NCBI GenBank assembly: GCA_937903325.1 | Contig: CALCZR010000059.1 | Coordinates: 65,489-129,488, forward strand | Source: an uncultured Candidatus Saccharibacteria bacterium | Lineage (GTDB): Bacteria > Patescibacteriota > Saccharimonadia > Saccharimonadales > AWTP1-31 | Length of the DNA stretch: 64,000 nt | Direction: 5' to 3' | Shown: positions 4,903-64,000 of the stretch, in pieces | How the letters are laid out: the number at the start of each line of letters is the position of its first letter | Numbering within the stretch: position 1 is the first letter of the stretch | Made by a program: the position numbers and the translations under genes | Notes under the pieces: model-generated | Database searches by the model: none | What the model saw: the letters and a program-made list of their open reading frames with translations, nothing else | Told to the model about the DNA's origin: nothing

Positions 4903-4959
4903 GGTGTTTTTAGATTGTTTGTTTTATCGTTCTACAGTATAAACTTTAGCACAATATTG

Positions 4960-5895
4960 TTATTTATGCAAGTTCCTATTAGAGATAGCTATAAGCAGCT
5001 CTTGCAGAGCCGCATCGGCGTCTATGACTTCTGACTTAAGTCGAATATCTAGTTCCAGTGCCTGGTGAATAAGTTGTTTCAACTTACTCCCCTCTATGCT
5101 CCGCGCCAGAGGCTGTGTCTTACGCACCACGAAGGGATTCAGCTTTGCCTGCGAAGCAACATCATTCGCCGGAGTATTGCCAGCAGCCTTCACAACCGCT
5201 AAGGCGTGTAACTGCCATGCAAGTAGCGCCAAGATAGCCTGTGGTTCGACTTTCTGTCGACGCTGTTCGTCATAGAGTGCCAGTGTCCGCTTGGCATTGC
5301 CAGCGAATGCTGCTTCCAGAAGTTCAAAGGTAGTACTTTGCGGGGTCTGGACGGTCAGGTGTTCAATGGACTGCCGAGTAACAGTGTCGTCATAGCTGAG
5401 TAGCTTAGCGAGCTCATTGCTCAGCCGCAGCTGGTTGGTCCCCACTCGCTGCACTAAATACCGAGCGTCCTGGCTGCTTATGCCCCCGCCCTGACTCTTT
5501 GCCTCCACGCCTAACCACCTGGCTAGGCCAACCTCATCTAGTTCGCCATACTCTGTAAAGTCAGTCTGTTTCTTGAGCGTCTTATACATGCTACTGCGCT
5601 TATCGAACTTAGGCTCTACCAGTAGCAGGTCGGTCTGCTCGTTAACTGCGTCTAGGAATTGTTCAATGTGCTCTGCCAGCTGCTTGTTAGCTGCTGGTGC
5701 ATCAATAATTACCATGCGCTTTTCAGCTAGGAACGGCATGGCCTGCACGCTTTCAAGCAGCCTGGGGTACTCAGTCTCCTCTGCCGACAAACGCTCTAAT
5801 CCAAAGTCACCGTAGGCCTGTACAAAGGCAGCAGTACGCTTACGTAGTTCATCTCGCAGTAAGAAGCTATTGGTGCCGGTGAGGGTCAGTATCAC
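4960..5895 (-). CDS. holA: DNA polymerase III delta subunit
   Basis: The ORF track extends to 5982, but those first 29 codons overlap mutM. The GTG at 5895 overlaps the mutM TGA stop (GTGA) and yields VILTLTGTNSFLLRDEL, a typical HolA N-terminus. The product is 311 aa with the delta-subunit helical C-terminal half. Confidence 0.75.
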   Translation of the reverse strand: MILTLTGTNSFLLRDELRKRTAAFVQAYGDFGLERLSAEETEYPRLLESVQAMPFLAEKRMVIIDAPAANKQLAEHIEQFLDAVNEQTDLLLVEPKFDKRSSMYKTLKKQTDFTEYGELDEVGLARWLGVEAKSQGGGISSQDARYLVQRVGTNQLRLSNELAKLLSYDDTVTRQSIEHLTVQTPQSTTFELLEAAFAGNAKRTLALYDEQRRQKVEPQAILALLAWQLHALAVVKAAGNTPANDVASQAKLNPFVVRKTQPLARSIEGSKLKQLIHQALELDIRLKSEVIDADAALQELLIAISNRNLHK

Positions 5896-49238: not shown

Positions 49239-49328
49239 GGAGAGGTGTCCGAGTGGTTGAAGGAGCTGCTCTCGAAAAGCAGTATGCCGGCAACGGTATC
49301 GAGGGTTCGAATCCCTCTCTCTCCGCCA
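49239..49328 (+). tRNA. tRNA-Ser (anticodon CGA)
   Basis: Cloverleaf read by eye: acceptor GGAGAGG/TCTCTCC, anticodon arm CTGCT-CTCGAAA-AGCAG, a long variable arm, T arm GAGGG-TTCGAAT-CCCTC and an encoded CCA. An extended -10 box TGCTATAAT lies 10 nt upstream. Confidence 0.9.
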
Positions 49329-49529
49329 GCCTATTACTGTTCTAAATCGTCCTACTTACCTGAGAATGTATCGGCATCGAAGCACCACAGCTCGTTGGTC
49401 TCGCTATCGCGCATGTAATACCTTTGGATAGTCGTTGTCATTGCAAACTCCTTTCCTAATATAACCGTAACAAGTATGGCTAGCAGGGAGATGTAGGAAT
49501 TCTTACATGCCAGAAAAAACCAGGAAATT

Positions 49530-49550
49530 AAAAACCCTCCAAAAGGAGGG
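49530..49550 (-). terminator. intrinsic terminator after tRNA-Arg
   Basis: The minus strand reads CCCTCC-TTTT-GGAGGG followed by TTTTT. Confidence 0.6.
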
Positions 49551-49559
49551 ATCTTAATT

Positions 49560-49636
49560 TGGTACACCCGACAGGATTCGAACCTACGACCTTTGGCTCC
49601 GCAAGCCAACGCTCTATCCAGCTGAGCTACGGGTGC
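49560..49636 (-). tRNA. tRNA-Arg (anticodon GCG)
   Basis: The reverse complement is GCACCCGTAGCTCAGCTGGATAGAGCG TTGGC-TTGCGGA-GCCAA ... GTAGG-TTCGAAT-CCTGT CGGGTGT-A-CCA, and anticodon loop positions 34-36 read GCG. Confidence 0.88.
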
Positions 49637-49685
49637 TCATAAAAACAGGGGTTAGTGTATCATTTTCTAGCCAATATTACTAGTG

Positions 49686-50273
49686 TTAGAAGCGGATTTT
49701 GTGCATCAGCTTATCAATTGGGTCTATTTTCCGTGGTTCAAATGGCAAGAAGTCAGCAAGCGCCTCAACGATACGATCTCCGTCGGTCGGAGCAAAGTAG
49801 ATACTTAGTCCGGGCATAAAACGTTGCAGGGGCATGAACCAGATAGACTCCAGGCCTTCCTCTTGGATAACAGAGAAGGACTTAAAGTTAGCATAGGGAT
49901 AAAATTTGTCGCCTACATGCACACCTTCTTCGTTAACGACATAAGATAGCTCTCGCGGCTTACGAGCCGCCATAATGCCAAATAAGATAGCCACGATCAC
50001 CACCATGCCAGATGTCACCATGTCCTTCGTCAAAAGATAAATAACGGCCGCTACCACTACTGCGCCGCCGCCCAAGATAGCATACCAGCCGCCTGTCTTG
50101 GTGTGAGCAACGAACTCTGAAGCAGTCCACGTTATTCCATCTAGCACCTTTTCAACTGGTGGAGCAGGGGATGGGGCGGGCGTAGAAGCAGCAATGTTGT
50201 TCTCGAAGACAACGGGGGCTTGTTGAGGTTGGGGCGCCGGTGTCGGTACCGCTGGTTTTTCACCTTCTTGCAT
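49686..50273 (-). CDS. membrane hypothetical protein with Pro/Gln-rich N-terminus
   Basis: I prefer the ATG at 50273 (MQEGEKPAVPTPAPQPQQAP...) to the TTG at 50330. It has two TM helices (WYAILGGGAVVVAAVIYLL; GMVVIVAILFGIMAA) and then a soluble C-terminal domain. Confidence 0.6.
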   Translation of the reverse strand: MQEGEKPAVPTPAPQPQQAPVVFENNIAASTPAPSPAPPVEKVLDGITWTASEFVAHTKTGGWYAILGGGAVVVAAVIYLLTKDMVTSGMVVIVAILFGIMAARKPRELSYVVNEEGVHVGDKFYPYANFKSFSVIQEEGLESIWFMPLQRFMPGLSIYFAPTDGDRIVEALADFLPFEPRKIDPIDKLMHKIRF

Positions 50274-50378
50274 AAGCGTATTGTACCGAATATATCCTTC
50301 TCTTTCTAGTAGGACAGTGTTTGGGCACAAAAATACTAGGCTTTTACCGGCTTGGATGGTATAATTTACCCCTGTTAT

Positions 50379-50471
<93 letters not shown>

Positions 50472-50496
50472 GAATCATTTTCAGATGTAGTGCCCT

Positions 50497-50524
50497 ACCG
50501 CTCGGTCCTGACCGAGCGGTTTTG
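50497..50524 (+). terminator. intrinsic terminator after tRNA-Ser(TGA)
   Basis: A perfect 10-bp stem ACCGCTCGGT-CCTG-ACCGAGCGGT is followed by TTTGTATTT. Confidence 0.75.
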
Positions 50525-50785
50525 TATTTCACTGCACCCCTGTTCTTGGGTTCGAATCCCATTTGCCCTTTGGACGCCGTCGCTTTGTGGACTTCAGTGT
50601 TGCTAGATCCTTCTGCACTCTCAGTTTGCGTTGAGCTATCGAAAGGAATGCTCGAGCCAACAGCTTCAGGTTTTCTTCAGATCGACGTTCAGGGCGAATC
50701 ATTGTTGCTCTAAGAGTACCCCCCGAATTGCAACTCGCCTAGCCACAATACAAGTTTAGAAGCGACCGTGTTTTATAATAAGCTC

Positions 50786-51715
50786 ATGACACTGATCCTA
50801 ACCGCATTGACACCCGAGTTCATTGTCCAGGCCTCGGATCGCATGTTGACTTACCCCTCTGGTGATGTCGCTCGTAGTGATGCAGTTAAGTCAGTAGTAG
50901 TGGGAGTAGATACGTCGTTCGGGTATACCGGTATGGCAGGGCTGCCGGTAACCGCTTCAATGGCAGCAGCACGACCTTACTTGAAAGCTGGGGAATGGCT
51001 GACGACCTCTGAATGGATAGCCACGGTGGCCGCGAACGCTAGTTCCAGCAAGCTGGCCGACACGGCTCTACTGGCGGCCGAGGGCGCCAAGGCGATGCAG
51101 CTTATTGGCCCGCGTGAATCCTCTAAACTGACCATATTCATTCGTACGAATTGGACCATGAACGAGCGAACAGGTGACTTGGAGCCGTCTCTGGTCCGGA
51201 TATCGAACGTCATGGACGAGAATAGATTTGAATACTCGCTCACACGGATTGGTAGTGATCGTCACTCCTTACTAGATACGAGTTTGAAGAAAGCAGACCT
51301 GTCCTCAATAGGGTTCTCGCCTGACTCGCTCGAACGTAGGATCGATGAAGAAGTTGCTGGCAATTCTGACCCGGCAAAGGTCTTGGCCTTGCTCGTCGAC
51401 GCCGTTCGGGAAGTATCACGTCTGCTTCGAGCGAAAGGGAGTTTAATTGTGGGCGAAGATGTGATCCAAACGTGCATACCACGCGAAGTGGTTGCCAGGG
51501 CACTGAAGAATGGTAGCGGTTGGACAATCGTAAACGGCCCGGCATCAATAGACTATGTCACGTTCGCCCACAACGATCCCACAAGTGCTGACGTCAAGCC
51601 AGTTAGCCCAGTTCATGTTCTGGGTGGGAATATTGTTGGAACCCTGAATATCTCACAGCTGGGTGTGCGGTTGGGAGAGGACCAGGTCTCACTTGGTCCT
51701 CTCCGTGCCTCTTGA
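50786..51715 (+). CDS. hypothetical protein with N-terminal proteasome/Ntn-hydrolase-like signature (tentative)
   Basis: From the ATG at 50786 the product starts MTLILTALTPEFIVQASDRMLTYPSGDVARSDAVK. After Met removal this gives Thr1, Asp17 and Lys34, close to the Thr1/Asp17/Lys33 spacing of proteasome beta/HslV. The track start is a GTG at 50768. The gene looks more GC-rich by eye than its neighbours. Confidence 0.45.
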   Translation: MTLILTALTPEFIVQASDRMLTYPSGDVARSDAVKSVVVGVDTSFGYTGMAGLPVTASMAAARPYLKAGEWLTTSEWIATVAANASSSKLADTALLAAEGAKAMQLIGPRESSKLTIFIRTNWTMNERTGDLEPSLVRISNVMDENRFEYSLTRIGSDRHSLLDTSLKKADLSSIGFSPDSLERRIDEEVAGNSDPAKVLALLVDAVREVSRLLRAKGSLIVGEDVIQTCIPREVVARALKNGSGWTIVNGPASIDYVTFAHNDPTSADVKPVSPVHVLGGNIVGTLNISQLGVRLGEDQVSLGPLRAS

Positions 51716-51884
51716 CTCGTCATGAGTCTGACTCCTGCAACGTCTCTCGACGAGGTGTGATCAGTCGGCGGAACGACTCAGATGGGTTCGAAAGCCTGAC
51801 CATCCAGTCCGCCAGAAAAACAAGGTTTGCGAAAGCAGCCTTATTTTTTTGGGAAGAAACAGCTAGGGCGGTATAGTTAGATCT

Positions 51885-52136
51885 ATGGCAAACAAAAAAC
51901 AATCTACACAGAAAGATCGGCAAGTAGTAAGTGGTCTATTTTGGATATTCTCACCATTTTTCGTACTAACAGGTATCGCCCTCCTCCAAATTGTGATCAG
52001 GTTCATCGACGCAACTCCATCGGGTGTCGTGCTAGCCGTTAACCTTGTTTCAGCAATCGGTGGCATCATTGGCGTAACGCTCGTTATAGCCGGACCAGTC
52101 ATCGGTATCCTCAAGCTCATCGACAGAAAACGTTAG
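51885..52136 (+). CDS. small two-TM membrane protein
   Basis: 83 aa with a TATAGT box 7 nt upstream of the ATG and two hydrophobic helices. It is followed by a strong hairpin terminator. Confidence 0.5.
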   Translation: MANKKQSTQKDRQVVSGLFWIFSPFFVLTGIALLQIVIRFIDATPSGVVLAVNLVSAIGGIIGVTLVIAGPVIGILKLIDRKR

Positions 52137-52178
52137 CAACCACCGTTTAATTACTCTGGAAACTGCAGCCAAACTAAA

Positions 52179-52204
52179 ACCCGCCGGATAGGCGGGTCTT
52201 GATT
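52179..52204. terminator. bidirectional intrinsic terminator
   Basis: ACCCGCC-GGATA-GGCGGGT is flanked by an A-run on the left and a T-rich tract on the right. It can serve both the plus-strand 83-aa gene and the minus-strand tRNA-Ser(GCT). Confidence 0.7.
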
Positions 52205-52299
52205 TGGCGGAGGAGGAGGGATTCGAACCCTCGCTGGAACTTGCGCCCCACTAACGATTTAGCAAACCGTCCCCTTCAGCCACTTGGGTACTCCTCCGC
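52205..52299 (-). tRNA. tRNA-Ser (anticodon GCT)
   Basis: The reverse complement is GCGGAGG AG TACCCAAGTGGCTGAAGGGG ACGGT-TTGCTAA-ATCGT, a long variable arm, GAGGG-TTCGAAT-CCCTC CTCCTCCGCCA. Confidence 0.88.
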
Positions 52300-53807: not shown

Positions 53808-54287
53808 ATGGCGCGACGTACTCGCGATGAAGATCTGTTAATGGAAGATGAGCTAACGGCCGCTTTCTTAGGTGAAGATGATATGCCTGTAGCTGATGAT
53901 CCTATACAGGACGCTCCAGCCGCAGCAGCACCTGCAGACGAATGGGATGAAGAAGAGGCCGTACCTGGCCAATTAGCCGTTGATGTATACGAAACACGCG
54001 AGAAGCTCGTTGTTAAGGCCCGTACAGCTGGCGTTAACAAGAGTGAATTAGATGTCAGTATCGCAGATAACACACTCAGCATTCGGGGCACGCTATCTGC
54101 TGGTAACGAAGACGACGTGGAGAACTACTTCGTACAAGAGTGTTACTGGGGTGAATTCTCCCGTAGCATTACACTTCCTGTTCCAGTAAAGGAAGAGGAG
54201 ATCGAAGCAGTGCTCAAGGACGGGGTCCTAACTATAAGCTTTACAAAGCTCAAGCAAGACACCGTTAAGAAGATTCAAGTTCTGTAG
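53808..54287 (+). CDS. Hsp20/alpha-crystallin family small heat-shock protein
   Basis: 159 aa with the alpha-crystallin domain LAVDVYETREKLVVKARTAGVNKSELDVSIADNTLSIRG...FSRSITLPVPV...AVLKDGVLTISFTK. A GGAGGG Shine-Dalgarno sequence is present. Confidence 0.9.
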   Translation: MARRTRDEDLLMEDELTAAFLGEDDMPVADDPIQDAPAAAAPADEWDEEEAVPGQLAVDVYETREKLVVKARTAGVNKSELDVSIADNTLSIRGTLSAGNEDDVENYFVQECYWGEFSRSITLPVPVKEEEIEAVLKDGVLTISFTKLKQDTVKKIQVL

Positions 54288-54310
54288 TTAACAAAAGAGC
54301 TCTAGCAACA

Positions 54311-54342
54311 ACCCCCGGGTGATACTCGGGGGTTTTCTTTTT
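54311..54342 (+). terminator. intrinsic terminator after hsp20
   Basis: CCCCCG-GGTGATACT-CGGGGG is followed by TTTTCTTTTT. Confidence 0.7.
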
Positions 54343-54423: not shown

Positions 54424-54849
54424 CTAGGAGGTTACAGGAGCGAAACGTGCGAGGACGAATCGTACGATAATCTGTGCCAGGGCGACTACCACTAGACCAA
54501 TGATGGCGTAGAGGATAGTGTTCTTAGCTGAGGTAACGTTACCAGAGTCACCACCTGAAGTGATGTACTTGATACCACCTACGATGATCATGACTACCGC
54601 GATGATACCAACGACAGCAGAGAACAGGTTAAGTGCTAAACGAACAGCGTCGTTAACCTTACCAGTTGCGTCTGCTTCACCAACCTCGTCACAGGTACCT
54701 GTCTCGGACAAGGTGATACTTGTACCACAGTTAAGTCCGCCGCGTGGGTCGAACGTCGCTGCATGAGCCACGGCAGGTACTGCAGCAGGCAGCAATAGTG
54801 CAGCTGAAGCAGCGAGGCCGAGGATCAAGCTTTTTATTCTTTTGATCAT
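54424..54849 (-). CDS. T4SS pilin-like protein (VirB2/TrbC-like), paralog 1
   Basis: 141 aa with a Sec signal peptide ending AVAHA, a Cys pair (NCGTSITLSETGTCDE), and then the two-TM hairpin LFSAVVGIIAVVMIIVGGIKYITSGGDSGNVTSAKNTILYAIIGLVVVALAQIIVRFV. Confidence 0.8.
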   Translation of the reverse strand: MIKRIKSLILGLAASAALLLPAAVPAVAHAATFDPRGGLNCGTSITLSETGTCDEVGEADATGKVNDAVRLALNLFSAVVGIIAVVMIIVGGIKYITSGGDSGNVTSAKNTILYAIIGLVVVALAQIIVRFVLARFAPVTS

Positions 54850-54925: not shown

Positions 54926-55315
54926 TTATGTCTTAAAGCGAATTAAGACAAAGCGCACAATTAACTGAGATATCATAGCGATGACGAGACCGATGACTGC
55001 GTAGAGGATAGTGTTCTTGGCACTGTTCACCTGTCCGGAGTCACCCTGAGAGGTGACGTATTTTATGCCGCCAATCATGATCATAACCACGGCGATAATT
55101 CCAATGATCACTGAGAAAATGTTCAGCGCCTTACTAACGACATCTTGGGTCTGGGTAGCCGCCGTCGTGGGATCGGTACACGTAGCGTCCCCATCTAGTG
55201 CAATGCCTTTACAGACGGCTTGCTTTGACCCTTCCAGCAGGGCAAAGGCCGGGGCTACAAATAGCACGTTAAATGTCAGGGTAAGCCCGAGCATGACACT
55301 TAAAAATCTCTTCAT
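54926..55315 (-). CDS. T4SS pilin-like protein, paralog 2
   Basis: 129 aa with a signal peptide ending PAFA, a Cys pair (VCKGIALDGDATCTD), and the hairpin IFSVIIGIIAVVMIMIGGIKYVTSQGDSGQVNSAKNTILYAVIGLVIAMISQLIVRFV, which closely resembles paralog 1. Confidence 0.8.
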   Translation of the reverse strand: MKRFLSVMLGLTLTFNVLFVAPAFALLEGSKQAVCKGIALDGDATCTDPTTAATQTQDVVSKALNIFSVIIGIIAVVMIMIGGIKYVTSQGDSGQVNSAKNTILYAVIGLVIAMISQLIVRFVLIRFKT

Positions 55316-55324
55316 GGTATCTCC

Positions 55325-55744
55325 TTAGTTTCCGAACTTGCTTACTATTAATGACACAATGAATTGTCCGACAACGGCAATAACCAAACCGACAACGGCG
55401 AAGATAAGACCATTCCGGGCACTGTTGGTAGAATTAGGGTCACCCTGTGAGGTGATCATCCGAACCGCGTTGATCAATATAACAAACAGGGCAGTGATAC
55501 CAAAGATCAACAGGAAGATACGAATACCTTTAGTTAGCACGCCGTCAGCACCGAGAACAGGATTTTGGGCGTCAGTATTAGTGGTACTGTCATCCAAGCA
55601 GACATCTGGGGCGCTGCCAGTCGCTGTCGTCGAGTTACAGATGTCCTCAATAACGGGAACTGCCGCTACCGGCCGTGCTGCCACGACATTAAACGCAAGC
55701 AGCAACGTTACTATAGTGAGCAAACCAGTAATAAGTCGCTTCAT
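55325..55744 (-). CDS. T4SS pilin-like protein, paralog 3
   Basis: 139 aa with a signal peptide ending PVAA, a Cys pair (ICNSTTATGSAPDVCLDD), and the hairpin IFLLIFGITALFVILINAVRMITSQGDPNSTNSARNGLIFAVVGLVIAVVGQFIV. Confidence 0.78.
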   Translation of the reverse strand: MKRLITGLLTIVTLLLAFNVVAARPVAAVPVIEDICNSTTATGSAPDVCLDDSTTNTDAQNPVLGADGVLTKGIRIFLLIFGITALFVILINAVRMITSQGDPNSTNSARNGLIFAVVGLVIAVVGQFIVSLIVSKFGN

Positions 55745-55746
55745 GT

Positions 55747-56061
55747 CTATATCCTACTTATCACTAACGTTACGATTATTTCAGCCGACAGAATAATAGC
55801 CAGTCCAATGGCGGCGTAGATAATACTCTGCCGAATCTTCGCCAGGGCCTCTGGGTTGCCCAGTGAGGTCATTAGCTGGAAAGCTGCGATAAGGATATAT
55901 ATAAGTGTAATAGCGCCCATGGAAGCAAAGACAATCTGTAAGATCTTAGCAACCTGATCACTATTGGCATCAACTTTTGGAAGCCCCGTGTCACAAAGGC
56001 GATTGGAACAATCCACACCTTGTGCTGCAGCAAATCGTGCGAATTCAGCGATACGACTCAT
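55747..56061 (-). CDS. T4SS pilin-like protein, paralog 4 (no obvious signal peptide)
   Basis: 104 aa with a Cys pair (DCSNRLCD) and the hairpin IVFASMGAITLIYILIAAFQLMTSLGNPEALAKIRQSIIYAAIGLAIILSAEIIV. The N-terminus MSRIAEFARFAAAQG is not a classical signal peptide. Confidence 0.7.
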   Translation of the reverse strand: MSRIAEFARFAAAQGVDCSNRLCDTGLPKVDANSDQVAKILQIVFASMGAITLIYILIAAFQLMTSLGNPEALAKIRQSIIYAAIGLAIILSAEIIVTLVISRI

Positions 56062-56066
56062 ATGTA

Positions 56067-56468
56067 TTAAAACCTCCCCGCGACAAACGTTACCGCAGCC
56101 GTCGAAACAATAGCAATAGCCAAACCGACACAGGCATTTATAACAGTACCGATGGCTTTCTTGGCTTTATCTGGCTGACCTTCGGCTGTAACAAACTGAA
56201 TACCGCCGAAGATGATAAAGCCAACGGCCGCCAGGGCAGCAATTCGTAGCAGAATCTCTATGACAGCCGCAATGATAAGCCAGGTATCGTTAACGCTCGT
56301 AATGCGCACCACACAAGTCGAGACACCGTCTACTGGGCCCGCAGCCGTAACACCAACGAGATACTTATACCAAGTAGGGAAGCCTAGGAGACTACCCTTA
56401 GGGGTGCAGGTGCCGCCCGTAGCAGCCAACTGGTATAAACCCGGTAATAAATTCGCAAACAATATCAT
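56067..56468 (-). CDS. T4SS pilin-like protein, paralog 5
   Basis: 133 aa with a hydrophobic N-terminus, two Cys (GGTCTPKG...VSTCVV), and the hairpin LRIAALAAVGFIIFGGIQFVTAEGQPDKAKKAIGTVINACVGLAIAIVSTAAV. There is a 4-nt overlap with the upstream gene. Confidence 0.75.
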   Translation of the reverse strand: MILFANLLPGLYQLAATGGTCTPKGSLLGFPTWYKYLVGVTAAGPVDGVSTCVVRITSVNDTWLIIAAVIEILLRIAALAAVGFIIFGGIQFVTAEGQPDKAKKAIGTVINACVGLAIAIVSTAAVTFVAGRF

Positions 56469-57370
56469 CTAAGCACTCCATTCGGTACTAACCAGTTAAG
56501 TATAGCGTATGCAAAAACAAAGAAGGCTAGCGCAGAAGCGTTACTAACAATACGCTTGATAGCCGCACCGGTTGCTTGTGGGTCACCTCTAGAGGTTGTG
56601 TACTGGATACCCGCAACAATCATAGAGCCAATTATCACCAGTCCTGCACCTACGCTCAAGAAACGCATGAAAGCAAATACAATATCCAAAATTGGGTTGC
56701 CAAGCCCCTTACAGCCAAGGTCGATAACCGGGTCGATACGTCCTTGGTCGGCAGCACCACAAGGCTGTCCGCTTGTCTTGGCGTCAGGATTCACTTTAGT
56801 GGTTCCAACAGGTAACTCAGGATTGCCTGTGGTAGAGCCGGGTGCCGCCCCGCCGCCATCTGTTGAGAGAGCAGGGATGTCACAGTAACTCGGTCGACTC
56901 CCCGGACGATCTTTACAGTCTGGGGTGTTATACGGCTGCGTACATGTACCAGGTAAATCTCCTGTACGATCCTGCTTACAGCTTGTATCGCTCGTGTTTA
57001 TTGCCGTATCGCCTATCTGATTCTTTAGCGCTTCCTGGTTGGGTTGAGCCGCAAAATAACGTAAGTAGCCATTCGTCCAGTCTTGATTACAGGTGGTCTG
57101 TTCTGCCCCCGTTTTTCCAGTACAGTACTTATCTACATATGTTTTAGCGACCTTAAGTACACATTCATCTCGGGCCGGTTGGCCTCTTCGAGGGCAAGAG
57201 CCAAGAGTTTTATTAAAGCTAGCATAGTTTGTGGCAGTATCTTCGGCGTTAACTACCTGCGGAGCAAACGCAGTAAGGCCAAGTGCCAAAAAAACCGACA
57301 CAATGAGACTCAAGAATAGAGGCCTCGCGGGACGGTATACAGAATTCACTTTTTTGTTTTGGATTTTCAT
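56465..57370 (-). CDS. Cys-rich extracellular protein with C-terminal T4SS pilin-like hairpin ('giant pilin'), paralog 6
   Basis: 301 aa with a signal peptide ending VVNA, an ectodomain of about 200 aa containing 11 Cys, and a C-terminal hairpin FLSVGAGLVIIGSMIVAGIQYTTSRGDPQATGAAIKRIVSNASALAFFVFAYAIL. It is the first gene of the operon. Confidence 0.75.
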   Translation of the reverse strand: MKIQNKKVNSVYRPARPLFLSLIVSVFLALGLTAFAPQVVNAEDTATNYASFNKTLGSCPRRGQPARDECVLKVAKTYVDKYCTGKTGAEQTTCNQDWTNGYLRYFAAQPNQEALKNQIGDTAINTSDTSCKQDRTGDLPGTCTQPYNTPDCKDRPGSRPSYCDIPALSTDGGGAAPGSTTGNPELPVGTTKVNPDAKTSGQPCGAADQGRIDPVIDLGCKGLGNPILDIVFAFMRFLSVGAGLVIIGSMIVAGIQYTTSRGDPQATGAAIKRIVSNASALAFFVFAYAILNWLVPNGVLR

Positions 57371-57385
57371 GATGCTTTCAGGATT

Positions 57386-57414
57386 ACTATACCGCTTTAC
57401 ATCACTGGTGGCAA
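57386..57414 (-). promoter_or_regulatory. putative promoter of the pilin operon
   Basis: The minus strand reads TTGCCA, a 17-nt spacer, then TATAGT. The -10 box ends 15 nt upstream of the ATG at 57370. Confidence 0.45.
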
Positions 57415-57429
57415 CATGTGCGTTTGAAC

Positions 57430-57458
57430 TTGCAGATATTAGGGTGAGCCTCTATAGT
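57430..57458 (+). promoter_or_regulatory. putative promoter of the T4SS structural operon
   Basis: TTGCAG, a 17-nt spacer, then TATAGT. It is divergent from the pilin promoter. Confidence 0.45.
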
Positions 57459-57504
57459 AGGTAAGAAGTTATGATTAAACTTCGTGGGCACAAAATAAAC
57501 AATT

Positions 57505-57533
57505 CTATCTCTAGTCAATCGACTGCAAGATAG
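57505..57533. promoter_or_regulatory. imperfect palindrome abutting the VirB6-like start codon
   Basis: CTATCTCTAGTC-AATC-GACTGCAAGATAG has outer arms CTATCT/AGATAG and inner arms AGTC/GACT. It ends 1 nt before the TTG at 57534. Confidence 0.4.
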
Positions 57534-60500
57534 TTGGATATTGCTTTGAAAACATTGAGTCACAAGCCAAAAAGTATAAATCGTCTTAAACAATTACTTG
57601 TTGTATTTGCGTGTGCCCTCGTATTAACACCACTATTGGGGTCTATCGTACGACCCACTCGAGTCGCAGCGGCCACAGATAGTGTGAACGACCAGCTTGC
57701 CCAAGAATATAAGACATGGGCTTCCTTTAACTTTGTCTCTTTCTGTATGGATCGTAGCGCTGACACTCTAGAGAGGGGGACCGACGAATATTCAAGTGCC
57801 GTGTCTTGGATGCGCGACCTTACTGACTTTTTTAGCATAACTCCTAGCGCCGAGGTTGGTTTAATAGTTGAGCCAAGCGATGGAGAACTTGACTGTGGCA
57901 CAGGCGGCGACCTCCTGCTTGCCCTTCGTAACATTGGCTACCCAACGATTAAAGACTTCATGGAGGAGTTTTACCCACCAGATGGTACCGGCTGTGATGG
58001 AGATGATTGTGCTCATCGAGACGTGAACAAGATGCGTGACCGCATACAAGATCGTATTAGGGACAAGGGATGGGCCGGTCCAGACGGAGCGGTCAACAGC
58101 CTATCTGATGCCGGGCAGTATTGGTTCTGGCGACACTATTTTAAGACCACCTGTGGCGCCACAGCATACACGAAGGATGATAAGGGAGAGCTCCCACGTG
58201 AATACAAGATCGCAAACAGCAGTAAGAAAAACGAAAAAGAACCAATGTCCGCTTGGATTTACCGGACAACAGAAGTCGACATCCAAGAAAGGAACTTCTT
58301 CACTTTTAAGATCGATGACCAGAATGGCATAGAGGAACTTGGTTTCGACTTTGCGGCGAACCCGTACAATACGAGTACTGGCAAGGACATGCAAGCCTAC
58401 AACTGTGTTGAGATAGGTAACAATATGAAGAAAGGTATTGCCCAGAAATACCTCGACTTGTATACGGCAGCTATAAATAAGTGTAAGCAAGCCGGTAGCA
58501 CCGTGCAGGAATGTAACGATCAAGCAGCGGATGATGCAGCAGCTGCACCGTCTGGATCTGGCCCTGGAGGCGACGCAGAAGACAAAGCCACCTGTGAGAC
58601 CGCCGGTAACGCAGCAGGCTGGATCATATGTCCGTTTTATAACATGTTCGCAGAAGGTACTGCCTTCTTCTACAAGTCTATCCTGCAGCCATTCTTAACG
58701 ACTCCGCCGGTTGACGTGACCCCAGGTGCCGAGAATAAAACCTTTGAAGCTTGGTCAAACTTCCGGTTCTACGGAAACATGTTCTTAGTCATTGCCATGA
58801 TCATCATTGTCTTTGGTCAGTCTATTGGAGGTGGACTCATCGACGCCTACACCGCCAAGAAAGTAATGCCACGTATCCTGGTAGCTGCCATTATGATCAA
58901 CATATCGATCTACCTAGTGGCGATATTAGTAGACGTTACTAATGCGGTGGGGAATGGCATATCCGCTCTTATTATGGCGCCGTTCGACACCAGTTTCACG
59001 GTTGGGCCCTCGACGGCAATTGCTGGCATTATCGGCACACTTATTGGTGCCGGTGTAGGTGCTGGTAGTATCGCTGGATTTGTTGGTGCAGCTACTTCAG
59101 GTGGTGTCAGCAGTGTCTTTATGCTCCTATTAATGTCGGTCGTAATACCGCTGCTCCTCGCACTGCTTGGTGTGTTTGTGACCCTAGTAATACGACAGGG
59201 CATAATCACTGCACTCGTACTAGTTAGTCCGGTTGCATTTGCCCTGTATTGTTTACCAAATACTGAGAAGTACTTTAAAAAGTGGTGGGAAACACTTAGC
59301 AAAGCACTGCTCGTGTATCCAATCGTTATGGCCATATTTGCCGTCTCTAATGTAATGAGTCTTCTGGTCATGCAAGGGAACATTACGAATACCGCTAGTT
59401 GGACCGACTTTAGCAACTGGTCCGTTAGTGATGGTATTGCTGGCCTCGTAGCACTGTTTATCCAAATCATTCCACTGTTCATGGTACCGTTCGCCTTCAA
59501 GTTCGCTGGTGGCGCTATGAGCTCTCTGTATGCTGCCATTGAAGGTGGAGGCAAGAAGGCTGGAGGAATGCTCAAGAGCCGTCAGGAACAGACCAAGAAA
59601 GACTACAACGCCGTTGCCTTGCAGGCTCGACAACGTCAGTACGACCGCCTGGGCTCTATCGGCAGTAGAAGCCGCCTTGCACGTCCTGTCACTGGCTTTT
59701 TGCAAAACCGTGTTGGTGGCCGCAACCTACACCTAGCCCTTGCCGAGATGACAGCTGACCAATTTAAGGAGATGGATGCCCAGAAGGCTACCGGTATTGA
59801 CGACGAACAACGAGGTCTATCCGTTAATAAGCGATGGGCACTGGAGCACGACAGGACTGGCGGCACACACTGGCGAATTGGGTCTAACGGCAGCAGAGAG
59901 TTCCGCACCTTGGGCGGTCGATGGGTTGCAGAAAGTGCCGTAGATGCCGCACACACCCGGTGGGGTGGCAACATGTCAGCCATGCAGTGGTCAGTGGGCT
60001 ACGAAATGGCTAAGGCAGCCACTCAAGAAGAGCAGGAATACTTATTCAACAACTATGGTCGACTTAACTCTGCGGGCAGTGGTCTCAACCTCAGCGACGG
60101 TCAAATGGGTGGCATGTGGACTGGTGCGGCATTTGCCCAGCAAAATACCGACCGCCAGTACAAGCACTATGCTTGGAACTCCGGTAATGGTGGTCAACTC
60201 AGAGTTTCAGGTACGGCTATGATGCGCGAAATCGACGAGCGTCAGGGCAACTGGCAGATGATGTCACAGTCAGCAGACACCTGGACCACTATGAGCCAGG
60301 AAATCGCTCGTGCCAGACGAGTAGCTTCTGGTCAAGCAACCCCGGCAGAAATGGGTGACATGAGCATGGAAGATGCCCAGGAAGTCATACAGCGTGGTTC
60401 TCGTATTGCCAAGTCTCTGGGTGGTGGTTACCGTACCGAAGACGGGCGCTGGGTTGATACTGGTGTTGGTCAAGGTGCATCTGGTCGTACTAAAGAAGAA

Positions 60501-60758
60501 ATTGAGAACTTTGCCGCACTCTTTGACAACAAGAAACAAGGACGCGACGACTACATGCGTGAAGTGGGTATGGAGCGTCGTGGAAGTACTACGGCACGCT
60601 CTGGCGATACCTATACTGCGCCTACCTATGACCCGGTCGCTGGTCGATATGCCGATCGGGCCGCTGTCGATGTCGAAGCATCTGGGTACCGAACAGAGGC
60701 ACCCCAGACTAACGATCCTACCGTACAACGCAGCAGGAACAATCCTCGAGGTGGTTAG
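57534..60758 (+). CDS. VirB6/TrbL/TcpH-like polytopic T4SS membrane protein with large ecto- and C-terminal domains
   Basis: 1074 aa with no in-frame ATG before the signal anchor, so a TTG start is inferred. It has an anchor LLVVFACALVLTPLLGSIV, a Cys-containing ectodomain of about 350 aa, and at least 6 TM helices (FLVIAMIIIVFGQSIGG, ILVAAIMINISIYLVAILV, VFMLLLMSVVIPLLLALLGVFVTLVI, ALLVYPIVMAIFAVSNVMSLLV, LVALFIQIIPLFMVPFAF). A Gly/Arg/Trp-rich soluble C-terminus of about 400 aa follows. Confidence 0.7.
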   Translation: MDIALKTLSHKPKSINRLKQLLVVFACALVLTPLLGSIVRPTRVAAATDSVNDQLAQEYKTWASFNFVSFCMDRSADTLERGTDEYSSAVSWMRDLTDFFSITPSAEVGLIVEPSDGELDCGTGGDLLLALRNIGYPTIKDFMEEFYPPDGTGCDGDDCAHRDVNKMRDRIQDRIRDKGWAGPDGAVNSLSDAGQYWFWRHYFKTTCGATAYTKDDKGELPREYKIANSSKKNEKEPMSAWIYRTTEVDIQERNFFTFKIDDQNGIEELGFDFAANPYNTSTGKDMQAYNCVEIGNNMKKGIAQKYLDLYTAAINKCKQAGSTVQECNDQAADDAAAAPSGSGPGGDAEDKATCETAGNAAGWIICPFYNMFAEGTAFFYKSILQPFLTTPPVDVTPGAENKTFEAWSNFRFYGNMFLVIAMIIIVFGQSIGGGLIDAYTAKKVMPRILVAAIMINISIYLVAILVDVTNAVGNGISALIMAPFDTSFTVGPSTAIAGIIGTLIGAGVGAGSIAGFVGAATSGGVSSVFMLLLMSVVIPLLLALLGVFVTLVIRQGIITALVLVSPVAFALYCLPNTEKYFKKWWETLSKALLVYPIVMAIFAVSNVMSLLVMQGNITNTASWTDFSNWSVSDGIAGLVALFIQIIPLFMVPFAFKFAGGAMSSLYAAIEGGGKKAGGMLKSRQEQTKKDYNAVALQARQRQYDRLGSIGSRSRLARPVTGFLQNRVGGRNLHLALAEMTADQFKEMDAQKATGIDDEQRGLSVNKRWALEHDRTGGTHWRIGSNGSREFRTLGGRWVAESAVDAAHTRWGGNMSAMQWSVGYEMAKAATQEEQEYLFNNYGRLNSAGSGLNLSDGQMGGMWTGAAFAQQNTDRQYKHYAWNSGNGGQLRVSGTAMMREIDERQGNWQMMSQSADTWTTMSQEIARARRVASGQATPAEMGDMSMEDAQEVIQRGSRIAKSLGGGYRTEDGRWVDTGVGQGASGRTKEEIENFAALFDNKKQGRDDYMREVGMERRGSTTARSGDTYTAPTYDPVAGRYADRAAVDVEASGYRTEAPQTNDPTVQRSRNNPRGG

Positions 60759-60804
60759 CACACTTAGCCTCCTCCGAAGCCACTAAGCTATTTACATAAG
60801 CTTA

Positions 60805-60833
60805 TTGACAATCTGCAACTTTTACGCTATAGT
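60805..60833 (+). promoter_or_regulatory. near-consensus internal promoter
   Basis: TTGACA, a 17-nt spacer, then TATAGT, 31 nt upstream of the ATG at 60865. Confidence 0.55.
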
Positions 60834-60864
60834 GTTTAGGTAATAGCACTTCAAAATTAACACT

Positions 60865-62148
60865 ATGCCAACACCACAACCACCTGAAGCCTCACCTAAC
60901 CCTGGAATAGCCGGCATGACACCGGATCAGCTTGTAGCTGCAATCGCGCAAGGTAATTTTCAAGCACAGGTAATGGGGCAGGCCCATGCAGAAGAGCGAG
61001 CAACCCAGGCGGCAGCGGATCAACATGCGGCTCGTATGGCAGACCCTCGCTATGCAGCACGACAGCATGCATTTGAAGATTTTGCAGAAGAGCGAGCACG
61101 GAGAGCAGATTTAAGTGCAGAGGAATTAGCTGCCGAAGATGCAGGGAAGGCAAGTCGAAATGCCGAACTTCTAACAGAGCAGCAGCAGCTGTCTGCAAAG
61201 CTTAATATTGTTTTCGAGAGATTTGGTATTGATGAAGAACGTTCTACTCCAACTACGGCTAAGCTAACACAATCGGCATCAGGACAGCATGGTGGTCATA
61301 TCACCAAACACTCCTGGGGCACGTTACTGCCGTGGTCTGAGGCTAAGTACAAAACCGATACTGTCGAGCATGTCACCAACTTTGTGGAAGTATTCAGCAA
61401 TCCGATATTGCTACAAGCAGCCAACCCTGACAATCCTGACGACACTACTGCACTCTATGCAGTGTTTAGCAAAAAGATGGGTGCAGAAAACCGTGACGAC
61501 AACCCTCTTGATTCGTTTAGCTTTGAAGTCTATAAAGCACCCTACAATGATGCTGCAAACGAAGGTCCAGAAGCCAGCATAACCCTTGGACAACTTAAGC
61601 ATATGGGCGCACAGTTAGCCACTGAGTGGGACGACGAACCTATAGCAGCCAACGTTAAGGCCGTTACAGCACTTCAAGCTCAAGATATTAGGAAATATAC
61701 AGACCTCAAAGGCAGACTTGATGCGTATGATGGCGTTGATATTGGCGCCCTGCCTTTAGCTGAACAGAAGAAGCTGGAGAAACTCAAGGGAGAATTCAGT
61801 AAAGCAGAGCATGGCCTTGCCAATGAACTCATAGATCCTAAGCTGAGCGATACTATCTCAAACATAAACTGGATCATGGATAACTTTGGTACCGAAAGAA
61901 ACCCGGCTATCACTGATGTGCCCCCTCCAGCCCCAACCGTCGAACCCGGTCGAGCACCGGTTCGTGATGCTGCGGAAAATAGTATATATACCACTCCTCC
62001 AGACGTGGTGCGTGAGGCAGCTGTAGCCAATAATGTTCAGCCACCCGTCTTTCACGGCCAAGCCCCCGCTGCAACAACACCTGAACAGCAAAGATTTGCT
62101 GCAGAGATGGCAGCACGCCAGGCCCAGCAGCAGAATCCGCAACCCTAG
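60865..62148 (+). CDS. soluble Gln/Ala/Pro-rich hypothetical protein embedded in the T4SS operon
   Basis: 427 aa with no TM segment or signal peptide. It has a helical charged N-terminal part (AEERATQAAADQHAARMADPRYAARQHAFEDFAEERARRADLSAEELAAEDA) and a Pro/Gln-rich C-terminus. No family recognised. Confidence 0.6.
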   Translation: MPTPQPPEASPNPGIAGMTPDQLVAAIAQGNFQAQVMGQAHAEERATQAAADQHAARMADPRYAARQHAFEDFAEERARRADLSAEELAAEDAGKASRNAELLTEQQQLSAKLNIVFERFGIDEERSTPTTAKLTQSASGQHGGHITKHSWGTLLPWSEAKYKTDTVEHVTNFVEVFSNPILLQAANPDNPDDTTALYAVFSKKMGAENRDDNPLDSFSFEVYKAPYNDAANEGPEASITLGQLKHMGAQLATEWDDEPIAANVKAVTALQAQDIRKYTDLKGRLDAYDGVDIGALPLAEQKKLEKLKGEFSKAEHGLANELIDPKLSDTISNINWIMDNFGTERNPAITDVPPPAPTVEPGRAPVRDAAENSIYTTPPDVVREAAVANNVQPPVFHGQAPAATTPEQQRFAAEMAARQAQQQNPQP

Positions 62149-62216
62149 TCCACCCCGACGATTCATTAAGTCACTTCATCCAGTAACCACTATAGGGTTC
62201 TGATACAATATAGGTA

Positions 62217-63275
62217 ATGTCTACTTATAAAGTTCTGCAGGACATTGAGGCTGAGGACAAGTTTCTTGGACCCTTGACGCTTAAGCAATTTATTTTTGCT
62301 GCTATTGCTATTGTTAGCGCTTATTTAAGTGTTATTTTCCTTACCAAGGGTATCTGGGTCTTAGTGTTCCCAATGGTGCCCGTTATTGTGGTGACGGGCT
62401 TTTTGGCCTTTCCATGGGGCAGGGACCAGCCAACGGAAGTATGGCTACTGGCCAAGATCCGCTTTATGTTTAAACCGCGCAAACGCATTTGGGACCAGGC
62501 CGGCATTCAAGAGTTAGTCAAGATTACTGCTCCTGTTGTGGAAGGGCCAGCTTACACCAGCGATAATCTATCGCAAAACGAAGTGAACAGTCGTCTGCGA
62601 GCTCTCGCTAACACCATAGATAGCCGTGGCTGGGCAGTAAAAGGGGTCGACCCCTCCAGTGCTGCGCAGCTTATCAATAACTCGTCAGACCGACTCGTGG
62701 CCGCCTCAACCTTGCCACAAGCCACACCATTGATTGACGACAGCGGGGTAGTGGACATTTTTGATAGCCCACAGGCCGCACAACTTACATCACAAATAGC
62801 AGCCAGCAGCCAGCAATACAAGCAGACCGTAGTCGGCCAGGTGCAAGACAATATTGCCCGTGGTGGTCAGCCGGCGCCCGCTAATAACTTTTGGTTTATG
62901 AACCAGTCGGACAACACCGCTCCTGGTATGGCTAGTTTTGGTACGCAAATGGCCGCACCTGCCGTAGATGACACCGCACTGCCTCAAAACATGCGTCGGG
63001 CCGTCACCCAAGATGCGGATGACGCCCAGCTTCTGAACAGAATCCACGACACTCAATCTCGTTCACACCAAACGTTCCGCAACCACAAAAGCATCAGTCC
63101 GAGAGGCACGCAGCCAGCAGAGAATCAACGTGCTTCTTCAGTGACAGCGGCCCCTGATCCTGTTACAATTGAACTTGCTAGAAACAATGATCGAAACGTG
63201 GAAAGTTTGGCTCGTGAGACGAACCGACTCCACCCGCCGTTAGATGACGACGAGGTTGTTGTTTCTCTACATTAG
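62217..63275 (+). CDS. PrgI/TcpE-like (VirB3-analogous) T4SS membrane protein with long low-complexity tail
   Basis: 352 aa. The N-terminus YKVLQDIEAEDKFLGPLTLKQFIFAAIAIVSAYLSVIFL...VLVFPMVPVIVVTGFLAFPWGRD forms the two-TM hairpin typical of PrgI-family proteins. It lies directly upstream of VirB4. Confidence 0.7.
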   Translation: MSTYKVLQDIEAEDKFLGPLTLKQFIFAAIAIVSAYLSVIFLTKGIWVLVFPMVPVIVVTGFLAFPWGRDQPTEVWLLAKIRFMFKPRKRIWDQAGIQELVKITAPVVEGPAYTSDNLSQNEVNSRLRALANTIDSRGWAVKGVDPSSAAQLINNSSDRLVAASTLPQATPLIDDSGVVDIFDSPQAAQLTSQIAASSQQYKQTVVGQVQDNIARGGQPAPANNFWFMNQSDNTAPGMASFGTQMAAPAVDDTALPQNMRRAVTQDADDAQLLNRIHDTQSRSHQTFRNHKSISPRGTQPAENQRASSVTAAPDPVTIELARNNDRNVESLARETNRLHPPLDDDEVVVSLH

Positions 63276-63309: not shown

Positions 63310-64000
63310 ATGGATCCGTCATACAACCAGCCGCAACCGGGTATGCAAGGTGGTGCGCCGTTTAACGCCGCCCCTCAAGCTACACCCCTTGCAGCACCCG
63401 TTAATAATCAAGGCCTGGGCGGACAACCGTACGCCATGCCTGGCGCCGTACCCGCCGTCGCCCCACCACCCAACACTTATAATCCTCAGATGGCCACCCC
63501 GCAGCCACAAGCTACTCCAGGCGTCACTCAAGCTTCACCTACAATTGCTCCTAAGGCCAACCCCAACAGCACCCAGAACGCCCTCCAGATAGCCGAAGTT
63601 CGTGACGGTATCGTGATTATGAACGACGGTAGCTTCCGCTCGGTCATTATGGTCAAGTCTATTAACTTTGATCTCATGAGCCCCCAAGAAAGGGAAGCGG
63701 TTGAATTTAGCTACCAAGGTTTCTTAAACTCCTTGTATTTCCCAATCCAGATCATGGTGCGATCCCAAAAGGTTGATCTCGGTCCCTATATTGCTAAGCT
63801 CGATAAGATTCGTACTGAGCACGACAACATGCTCCTCGCGCTTCTCATGGAAGACTATATAAATTACATGGACCAGTTGAGTCAGCAAACAAACATCATG
63901 GACAAGAAATTCTACGTTGTTATTCCGTACTTCCCGACAACCGACTTGCAAGGCGCCCTCAAAGATAGCAAGGGCCTGATCGCTGGACTAGGTGCCATGT
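63310..64000 (+). CDS. virB4: VirB4/TrsE/PrgJ-like T4SS ATPase, N-terminal part (continues past right edge)
   Basis: Absent from the ORF track because it is open-ended. The frame is open from the ATG at 63310 to the window end. A Pro/Gln-rich extension of about 85 aa is followed by IAEVRDGIVIMNDGSFRSVIMVKSINFDLMSPQEREAVEFSYQGFLNSLYFPIQIMVRSQKVDL...KKFYVVIPYFP. This matches the N-terminal domain pattern of Gram-positive VirB4 homologs. Confidence 0.75.
   Translation, partial: MDPSYNQPQPGMQGGAPFNAAPQATPLAAPVNNQGLGGQPYAMPGAVPAVAPPPNTYNPQMATPQPQATPGVTQASPTIAPKANPNSTQNALQIAEVRDGIVIMNDGSFRSVIMVKSINFDLMSPQEREAVEFSYQGFLNSLYFPIQIMVRSQKVDLGPYIAKLDKIRTEHDNMLLALLMEDYINYMDQLSQQTNIMDKKFYVVIPYFPTTDLQGALKDSKGLIAGLGAM

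Follow-up and report, generated by a model that had tools for sequence, protein, structure and literature searches.

A VirB2-like pilin with a variable, Cys-rich outer domain at the first position of a Saccharibacteria type IV secretion system array

Introduction

As described in passages of three papers, the type IV secretion systems (T4SSs) of Saccharibacteria resemble the conjugation systems of monoderm bacteria assigned to the mating-pair formation class FATA (MPF-FATA), lack a relaxase and carry arrays of VirB2-like pilins (PMC10633639; PMC12102498; PMC12857230). They are presented in passages of one of these as the only monoderm T4SSs with VirB2-like pilins (PMC12857230), and growth of Southlakia epibionticum as an epibiont requires its six-pilin array, the first gene SEML1_0014 included, according to passages of another (Wang et al. 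2023; PMC10633639). The arrays are discussed, in passages of the third, as divergent paralogs that may serve antigenic variation or host adaptation (Quinonero-Coronel et al. 2025; PMC12102498). The present analysis concerns the first gene of such an array (56465–57370, minus strand) in a 64,000-nucleotide stretch of DNA from an uncultured Candidatus Saccharibacteria bacterium (GenBank assembly GCA_937903325.1, contig CALCZR010000059.1, positions 65,489 to 129,488), hereafter the window. It encodes a pilin-like protein of 301 amino acids (aa), the position-1 protein, which is a subunit of the six-member VirB2-like set of a chromosomal MPF-FATA-like Saccharibacteria T4SS.

The window locus belongs to the published Saccharibacteria T4SS pilin-array system. 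Genes SEML1_0013–0022 of S. epibionticum ML1 have the same order, with a VirB6-like gene divergent from six pilins and with HSP20, ComF-like and tRNA genes beyond them; the ML1 array also matches the window in its PrgI/VirB3 and TraC-like/VirB4 genes on the other side and in the gene sizes of positions 3–6. The ML1 equivalent of the VirB6-like gene, SEML1_0013, is annotated as TrbL/VirB6 (passages of PMC10633639). The two loci differ at the start of the array, where the first gene of ML1 is minimal (399 bp) and that of the window carries a head of ~160 aa. In ML1 it is apparently the second gene, SEML1_0015, that is enlarged, its PF18895 match lying at residues 115–180. Judged from synteny only, SEML1_0014 is the ortholog of the position-1 gene.

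Canonical VirB2-type pilins are about 65–120 aa long when mature, carry no extra domain and assemble into filaments outside the cell that contain bound phospholipid. The position-1 protein resembles the VirB2/TrbC/TraA pilins (PF04956, PF18895) in its long signal peptide, its two hydrophobic helices, its short basic loop and its place in a T4SS cluster. It differs from them in its ~160-aa N-terminal head, with putative disulfides, and the linker that follows; in being one of six fixed paralogs rather than a single pilin; in its monoderm setting; and in scoring below the Pfam threshold. The Mbov_0395 family of Mycoplasma integrative conjugative elements (NF045849) is likewise pilin-like and part of a monoderm MPF-FATA-type system, but its members are headless single hairpins of 80 aa. 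Multiple divergent VirB2 genes also lie beside the T4SSs of Bartonella and Anaplasma, where variation is tied to host interaction (cited in passages of PMC12102498); whereas those arrays are read as sets of interchangeable antigenic variants, each position of the present array forms a separate orthogroup and variation is concentrated in one N-terminal insertion site. Two features appear to be new: the joining, at one fixed position, of a VirB2-type hairpin with a laterally exchanged head that is predicted to be folded and rich in disulfides, and the strict six-position orthology of the array. The passages of the three papers on the Saccharibacteria T4SS describe neither an enlarged first subunit nor a hypervariable insert at position 1, positional orthology or cassette exchange (PMC10633639; PMC12102498; PMC12857230).

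Architecture of the position-1 protein

The position-1 open reading frame (ORF) begins with ATG and ends in a stop codon that overlaps the start of the position-2 gene by 4 nucleotides (nt), and a divergent intergenic region of 163 nt lies upstream; the gene is thus the first of its operon, as a first-pass annotation made from the letters of the sequence had stated. Its product has 76 homologs (best E 5e-199; full-length homologs E 5e-199 to 1e-62), and all of those with a taxon label come from Saccharimonadales/Saccharibacteria. With homologs to E 5e-199 and a ratio of nonsynonymous to synonymous substitution (dN/dS) of 0.03 in its outer domain, the feature is not a chance ORF.

The overall plan read at first pass, in which a signal peptide precedes a Cys-rich outer domain and a pilin-type hairpin, holds. 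The signal peptide (residues 1–42; 57245–57370) comprises a basic N-region and a hydrophobic core at residues 18–35, within an N-terminal hydropathy segment of residues 14–42 that ends APQVVNA↓EDTAT (the arrow marks the predicted cleavage site, VNA↓E). Orthologs retain a small residue at −3 and −1 (VSA↓V, VYA↓A, ARA↓A, VFA↓A), as for a signal peptidase I site. Neither a class III signal peptide nor a prepilin peptidase site of the form G↓F/M-x-x-x-E is found in the position-1 sequence, which has the type I-like signal peptide ending VNA↓E instead.

The outer region extends from residue 43 to residue ~225 and is made up of a conserved domain of ~125 aa, a Gly/Thr/Pro linker of ~35 aa and a family-wide Cys loop of 17 aa. 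It is Cys-rich as annotated, with two corrections: the protein has 10 Cys (residues 59, 70, 83, 94, 131, 143, 152, 163, 204 and 220), not 11, and the region measures ~180 aa, not ~200. The Cys-rich string quoted as typical of it, CKQDRTGDLPGTCTQPYNTPDCKDRPGSRPSYCD, was found at residues 131–164.

Two subdomains form the head. Subdomain A (residues 43–125; 56996–57244) is a predicted helical bundle whose Cys 59, 70, 83 and 94 are invariant in 10 orthologs. Subdomain B (residues 126–167; 56870–56995) is a four-Cys module, CKQDRTG..CTQPYNTPDCKDR..PSYCDIPAL, in which Cys 131, 143, 152 and 163 are conserved at a level of at least 90%; it is separable, because the module is absent from one relative (P0079). 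A flexible linker rich in Gly, Thr and Pro follows (residues 168–203; 56762–56869), predicted with low confidence; other insert classes have poly-Gly linkers at this site. The family-wide Cys loop (residues 204–220; 56711–56761) reads C-G-x(n)-[ST]-I-[DN]-x-G-C, and conservation of its two Cys, C204 and C220, is 90% or more across 77 sequences.

For the outer domain alone, AlphaFold2 (AF2) returned a mean predicted local distance difference test score (pLDDT) of 77 and a predicted template modelling score (pTM) of 0.67. Subdomain A (residues 43–122) reached a pLDDT of 84–94, and the linker was predicted to be disordered at about residues 165–200, with pLDDT <50 at 165–193. Neither of the two outcomes that the first-pass annotation named as refuting its reading was seen: structure prediction gives a folded helical domain and not merely a disordered linker, and orthologs keep both the Cys pattern and the C-terminal hairpin.

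The head class found in the window is rare, about ten proteins in total carrying it. An exhaustive phmmer search with the head among 1.84 billion cluster representatives retrieved five true relatives, all of them position-1 pilins. The sole non-pilin hit (P0081, 2175 aa), a Ser/Thr-rich repeat protein of eukaryotic type, was rejected as compositional because its match was made up of 10 weak repeats. All eight head Cys, together with motifs such as LGSCPRxGQPARDEC and CTQPYNTPDCKDRxGxRPSYCDIPAL, persist in relatives with as little as 27% identity, and the head differs from that of a 98%-identical strain (L001) by 19 synonymous and 2 nonsynonymous changes (dN/dS 0.03). The head is constrained, as its eight conserved Cys, this low dN/dS and its confidently predicted AF2 subdomain attest. 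It matched no Pfam family at E≤1, and NCBIfam and PDB sequence searches gave no family either. Foldseek searches of PDB and BFVD with full-length and head-only models returned nothing significant, with no fold match to the head at E<2; VirB5/TraC structures were absent from the PDB matches of the head, all of which had E >3.

The C-terminal part (residues 221–301 plus the stop codon; 56465–56710) is a VirB2-like helix-loop-helix hairpin marked by the loop motif SRGDPQ...KR and the C-terminal motif NWLVPxGVL. Hydropathy places its helices at residues 226–258 and 273–300, joined by the loop TSRGDPQATGAAIKR, and AF2 places them at 226–259 and 264–294 around the loop SRGDP (pLDDT 72–84). With its predicted signal peptide (cleavage would follow VNA) and its two hydrophobic helices separated by a short polar/basic loop, the protein has the layout of a VirB2-like pilin. 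Its match to PF18895 (T4SS_pilin) covers residues 242–294 and scores 18.0 bits (E 0.003), against a gathering threshold of 26.6; TrbC gave no hit to the position-1 protein in the Pfam scan, and NF045849 matched weakly (E 0.0011, 18.6 bits), as it did position 6 (E 6e-7, 29 bits), against a cut-off of 40. The nearest structural neighbour of the predicted hairpin in a Foldseek search of PDB was an archaeal conjugation pilin (8dfu; template modelling score 0.66 over 68 columns), which at E 3.9 is not a significant match.

Profile comparison is more informative within the array. A profile of the C-terminal 100 residues of position-1 proteins aligned with the profiles of positions 2–6 at a probability of 97.8–98.5% in hhalign (E 1e-12 to 1e-15; 65–81 columns), and because each of the five small paralogs is matched at ~98%, the hairpin that position 1 was first thought to share with them is shared by homology. 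The hairpin of this 'giant pilin', as it was called at first pass, is of the VirB2/T4SS_pilin kind and not that of a generic or type IV pilus pilin. The protein falls in the position-1 orthogroup, whose members are the first gene of the array, lie divergent from the VirB6-like gene and have the Cys loop, 81 aa after the last Cys and the motif WLVPxG; it scores 155 bits against the position-1 profile and at most 48 bits against those of the other positions.

Six fixed positions in the array

Arrays were compared across 46 loci, comprising the window, five metagenome-contig loci and, from one scan of GTDB species genomes with the hairpin alignment of position-1 proteins, 40 of the 41 loci returned; the forty-first, a short locus, has no position-1 gene and was left out. 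The position-1 gene stands first in all 46. Its product ranges from 133 to 328 aa, and the median sizes of positions 2–6 are 122, 106, 133, 145 and 146 aa; the standard deviation in length is 51 aa at position 1 versus 6–7 aa at positions 3 and 4. Among the 42 non-redundant loci, 246 of 249 best cross-locus BLAST hits fell on the gene of the corresponding array position, so that the six genes are ancient, individually conserved orthogroups rather than recent or interchangeable copies. Such strict positional orthology argues for six distinct structural roles.

Spacing within the array is also regular. In the same 42 loci, genes overlap by 4 or 1 nt at junction 1/2 in 37, at junction 2/3 in 28 and at junction 3/4 in 28, and the median gap is 8 nt at junction 4/5 and 72 nt at junction 5/6. 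Position 6 is the most conserved of the small pilins, with 63–81% identity in four of five distant-locus comparisons and 49% in the fifth.

The five small pilins of the window all lie on the minus strand. Position 2 (133 aa; 56067–56468), which overlaps the position-1 stop codon by 4 nt, matches PF18895 at 28.4 bits; position 3 (104 aa; 55747–56061), without an N-terminal signal peptide, at 33.9 bits; position 4 (139 aa; 55325–55744), a positional ortholog in 42 of 42 loci, at 24.2 bits, just under the gathering threshold; position 5 (129 aa; 54926–55315) at 50.2 bits; and position 6 (141 aa; 54424–54849), preceded by a gap of 76 nt, at 55.2 bits. Positions 2, 3, 5 and 6 thus exceed the PF18895 threshold, and the last two additionally give weak Pfam matches to TrbC/VirB2. 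The hydrophobic N-terminus of position 2 is only short. Position 3 has a Cys pair (C18/C23) before its hairpin, and an upstream stop codon excludes a longer ORF. Position 6 is set apart by a gap of ~70 nt in every array, and positions 5 and 6 of the window share 59% identity. Their spacing and their best Pfam pilin matches suggest that positions 5 and 6 may be abundant shaft subunits, possibly expressed separately.

Variability and exchange of the head

Position-1 proteins follow a common plan of signal peptide, insert, Cys loop (full consensus C-G-x(n)-[ST]-I-[DN]-x-G-C-x-G-x-G-N-P-I-x-D) and hairpin ending WLVPxG. The distance from the last Cys to the C-terminus is constant at 81 aa across the position-1 proteins listed for the 46 loci, and the variable part sits only between the signal peptide and the Cys loop. 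The mature outer part measures 21–221 aa, and the shortest members have no extra domain. The window protein, called a giant at first pass, is no one-off but the long end of a continuous series within one orthologous family. Position 2 is enlarged instead of, or besides, position 1 in some genomes (234 aa in L045, 206 aa in L041 and 158–163 aa in L031–L034), so that position 1 is not alone in having an N-terminal expansion site.

Outer Cys occur in even numbers (2, 4, 6, 8, 10 or 12) in 119 of 120 unique position-1 proteins and in an odd number in one, a parity that points to disulfide pairs outside the cell. Inserts of at least 40 aa number 85 and fall into 44 classes that have no BLAST similarity to one another, several of them ending in Gly-rich linkers.

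The distribution of the insert is at odds with the phylogeny of the remainder of the operon. Position-1 protein P0006, from locus L047, has a hairpin 88–90% identical to that of the window, where the other pilins are 66–77% identical, and its signal peptide and head are unrelated to those of the window. The DNA of L047 aligns with the window from position 56810 downstream and again at 57428–57495 (79%) and is unalignable across 56811–57427, which puts the recombination breakpoint within the linker, at about residue 187. The reverse pattern is found in the distant locus L005, whose head is 69% identical to that of the window, against 44% for the position-1 hairpin and 30–63% for positions 2–6, so that no other piece of the operon is as well conserved as the head; where the other pilins of a genome stand at 30–63%, heads are 64–69% identical. 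Against L001, the head shows ~3-fold more synonymous divergence than the remainder of the gene (Fisher p = 0.002). The swap in L047, its reverse in L005 and the raised synonymous divergence against L001 together indicate cassette exchange, in which the head would move between lineages as a module with its breakpoint in the linker.

The divergently encoded VirB6-like protein has a variable part of its own. Its N-terminal outer domain (~57660–58730, residues ~43–400) contains 10 Cys between residues 71 and 366 and is 25% identical to that of locus L048, where the transmembrane (TM) region of the same protein is 74%, its C-terminal tail 96% and the pilins 78–97% identical. The position-1 head and this domain form a hotspot of variability that flanks the divergent promoter region at about 56810–58600. 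The window and L001 share both the head and the VirB6-like N-terminal domain. Co-evolution of the two was considered and rejected, as they are 78% and 25% identical, respectively, in L048.

Proposed role and alternatives

On the best reading, which we would back about as readily as doubt, the position-1 protein enters a heteromeric filament or stalk of the VirB2 type as a minor subunit and presents there an exchangeable head for contact with the host. The positional orthology, the overlaps of positions 1–4, the absence of VirB5 and a head that is at once hypervariable, exchangeable and constrained are the grounds for this reading. The protein would be exported by the Sec pathway, its signal peptide being cut after VNA, and its C-terminal hairpin would seat itself in the membrane in the manner of a VirB2 pilin. 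Its 10 Cys would form five disulfides outside the cell. The subunit would then be taken into a filament or stalk built from all six paralogs, each fixed in place and non-interchangeable. Positions 1–4 would be synthesised in coupled, similar quantities and form a minor or priming complex, and the bulk would be supplied by positions 5 and 6.

In F-pilus and T-pilus structures, the geometry puts the pilin termini on the outside. Since the inter-helix loop of conjugative pili faces the lumen (PMC12037004), the N-terminus of a VirB2-type subunit would point outward and the head would be displayed on the outside. Its helical and Cys-knot subdomains, held on a flexible Gly/Thr/Pro leash, would then constitute an exchangeable module for contact with a partner, most likely with the host envelope. 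Hypervariability, cassette exchange and flexible tethering favour such an exposed partner-contact role; the adhesin function that the first-pass annotation proposed, and the placement at tip or base, are inferences.

In this position the head may fill the role of the Gram-negative tip protein VirB5. None is encoded in orthologous loci L003–L005, and passages of a review say the same of the Saccharibacteria system (PMC12857230). The likeness to VirB5/TraC lies in the proposed role only, that of a low-copy, exposed, partly helical protein that initiates or caps a filament and touches the target. Sequence and fold show no similarity, and a pilin hairpin is missing from VirB5, unlike the present protein with its head joined to a VirB2-type module; the analogy is functional. 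In type IV pili (T4P) and type II secretion systems (T2SS), the minor (pseudo)pilin complex GspH-I-J-K is likewise encoded by tandem fixed paralogs, of which GspK has an inserted domain and is thought to cap the fibre. The logic of tandem fixed paralogs with one enlarged member is shared with the present array; fold and machine are unrelated, which makes this an analogy and not a membership.

An exposed head need not bind a host. It might be a surface decoration that turns over to evade phages, host defences or competitors targeting the machine, which we consider unlikely. Hypervariability and cassette exchange fit such evasion equally, the neighbouring VirB6-like outer domain is hypervariable too (25% identity where the pilins are at 78–97%), headless members exist, and passages of PMC12102498 have already suggested roles akin to antigenic variation for the pilin arrays. 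Strong purifying selection on the head within its class (dN/dS 0.03) speaks against it, however, and identities of 64–69% in the head where the other pilins are at 30–63% fit a retained specific function better than continuous escape.

It is distinctly unlikely, in our judgement, that the protein works entirely within the machine, as an analogue of a VirB5/VirB6 stalk or as a wall-spanning base whose head touches the VirB6-like domain or the cell's own wall and never the host; the placement at the base offered by the first-pass annotation falls under this alternative. A surface for self-contact would hardly tolerate 44 unrelated inserts or none at all, and the two outer domains do not co-vary, the heads of the window and L048 being 78% and their VirB6-like N-terminal domains 25% identical. 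What commends this alternative is the head-to-head arrangement with the VirB6-like gene, the product of which has a Cys-rich N-terminal outer domain as well; the docking of VirB5 on VirB6 in Gram-negative systems (passages of the review PMC12857230); and the position-1 hairpin, which between the window and L047 is better conserved than any other part of the operon.

The hairpin could also be a mere membrane anchor for a stand-alone surface protein that shares an operon with the pilins without being assembled by the T4SS. Two hydrophobic helices would suffice for anchoring, and position 1 is the most divergent paralog and falls below the family thresholds, but the gene invariably opens the array, and in 37 of 42 loci it shares 4 or 1 nt with position 2, which is compatible with translational coupling; its product retains the loop motif of the family and is related by homology to the five other pilins, and its positional equivalent is essential together with the rest of the array (passages of PMC10633639). 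Taken together, these points make a simple anchor very unlikely. An annotation artefact, whether a chance reading frame or an N-terminal extension from a wrong start codon, has nothing in its favour beyond its a priori possibility and the weak Pfam hit, and it is refuted by homologs at E 5e-199 to 1e-62, the large excess of synonymous over nonsynonymous change, the conserved Cys and the confidently predicted domain.

Several observations weigh against a minor subunit with a host-contact head. No known adhesin, lectin or VirB5 resembles the head in Pfam, phmmer or Foldseek (PDB/BFVD) searches, and AF2 modelled subdomain B (residues 131–167) with low confidence, at a pLDDT of only 53–71. Position 1 is sub-threshold in Pfam and NCBIfam, has no sequence link to solved pilins and is the paralog least like canonical pilins. 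About a fifth of the position-1 proteins (22 of 120) are headless, with the loop Cys pair only, and because such members exist and the essential S. epibionticum equivalent is of minimal size, the head is not needed for the core function. The division into minor and major subunits is drawn only from gene spacing and conservation. No filament has been shown for a Saccharibacteria T4SS or reported for any T4SS of Patescibacteria, passages of PMC12857230 stating only a potential to elaborate pili, and the role of this T4SS has been called completely unknown (PMC11665869).

The minor-subunit reading can be carried further, to a filament whose shaft consists of positions 5 and 6 and whose priming or tip complex consists of positions 1–4, the counterpart of the minor-pilin complexes of T4P and T2SS but with an independent origin on the VirB2 fold. 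The head would then replace VirB5 as a laterally exchangeable host-range cassette, acting jointly with the VirB6-like outer domain, which is just as hypervariable. This extension is tentative, possible but more doubtful than the reading from which it departs.

Neighbouring genes

The setting of the array in a T4SS cluster is confirmed by the PrgI gene in the window, by a TraC-like gene from 63310 and by the VirB4 and TrbL_3-annotated genes of orthologous loci. The VirB6-like gene (57534–60758, plus strand) is divergent from the pilins and encodes a giant membrane protein of 1074 aa with TM segments at residues 409–659 and the Cys-rich, hypervariable N-terminal outer domain; its L005 ortholog is annotated PF19590 (TrbL_3) in a precomputed table. 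The PrgI/VirB3-like protein (352 aa; 62217–63275, plus strand) matches PF12666 at E 4.7e-13. At the edge of the window, the 5' part of the TraC-like gene (63310–64000, plus strand) is an open frame that runs off the window, 59–71% identical to proteins annotated PF26593 (TraC-like) in L003–L005, where VirB4 comes next. Pfam scans of this truncated ORF and of the VirB6-like orthologs gave no hits, and both identities rest on BLAST matches to orthologs with precomputed annotations. Loci L003–L005 carry on with VirB4 (P-loop_TraG) and a cell-wall hydrolase, and in L004 a HepT-like/nucleotidyltransferase (Polbeta) toxin-antitoxin pair is inserted between the PrgI and VirB6-like genes (4794–5563).

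Between the VirB6-like and PrgI genes lies a gene for a 427-aa protein (60865–62148, plus strand) that is hypervariable between close strains. The protein is rich in Ala, Gln and Pro, has no TM segments and gave no Pfam or NCBIfam hit. The window and L001 share 93–94% DNA identity across the pilins, the N-terminal and TM regions of the VirB6-like gene and PrgI; they diverge sharply at 60610–62200, where the 427-aa protein is 36% and the VirB6-like tail 72% identical. The 427-aa protein could be a variable T4SS substrate or adaptor.

A promoter-like site, TTGCCA-17-TATAGT, is present in the divergent intergenic region (57386–57414, minus strand), matching the consensus at 10 of 12 positions. 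Promoter and terminator scans gave counts that were not above those of shuffled controls, and this site is thus a candidate only. Downstream of the pilin array are genes for HSP20, a ComF-like phosphoribosyltransferase and tRNA. A strong GC-rich hairpin with an 11-bp stem, AACCCCCGGGTGATACTCGGGGGTT, followed by a T-run, occupies 54310–54334 between the convergent HSP20 gene (ending at 54287) and the last pilin gene (ending at 54424); it is likely a terminator for HSP20, perhaps acting in both directions. Four tRNA genes lie downstream of the pilin operon (49239–49325, 49563–49636, 50379–50465 and 52208–52297), interspersed over 49239–52297 with ORFs of 214, 315, 83 and 224 aa that have no Pfam match.

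Implications

The T4SS of Saccharibacteria is essential for epibiotic growth, yet its function has been called completely unknown (PMC11665869). If the pilins are fixed positional orthologs, the published view of the array as antigenic variants that can stand in for one another would give way to a heteromeric assembly. The attachment of a folded domain to a VirB2-type pilin would moreover be unusual for T4SS biology in general. If novelty is concentrated in the position-1 head and the VirB6-like outer domain, these would offer a small, defined and genetically separable target for questions of contact and host specificity, with heads that could be expressed alone, swapped between strains or employed as markers linking uncultured Saccharibacteria to their hosts. 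Should the more tentative extension hold as well, with the head serving as a laterally exchangeable host-range cassette, the class of the position-1 insert would predict the host of an uncultured Saccharibacterium.

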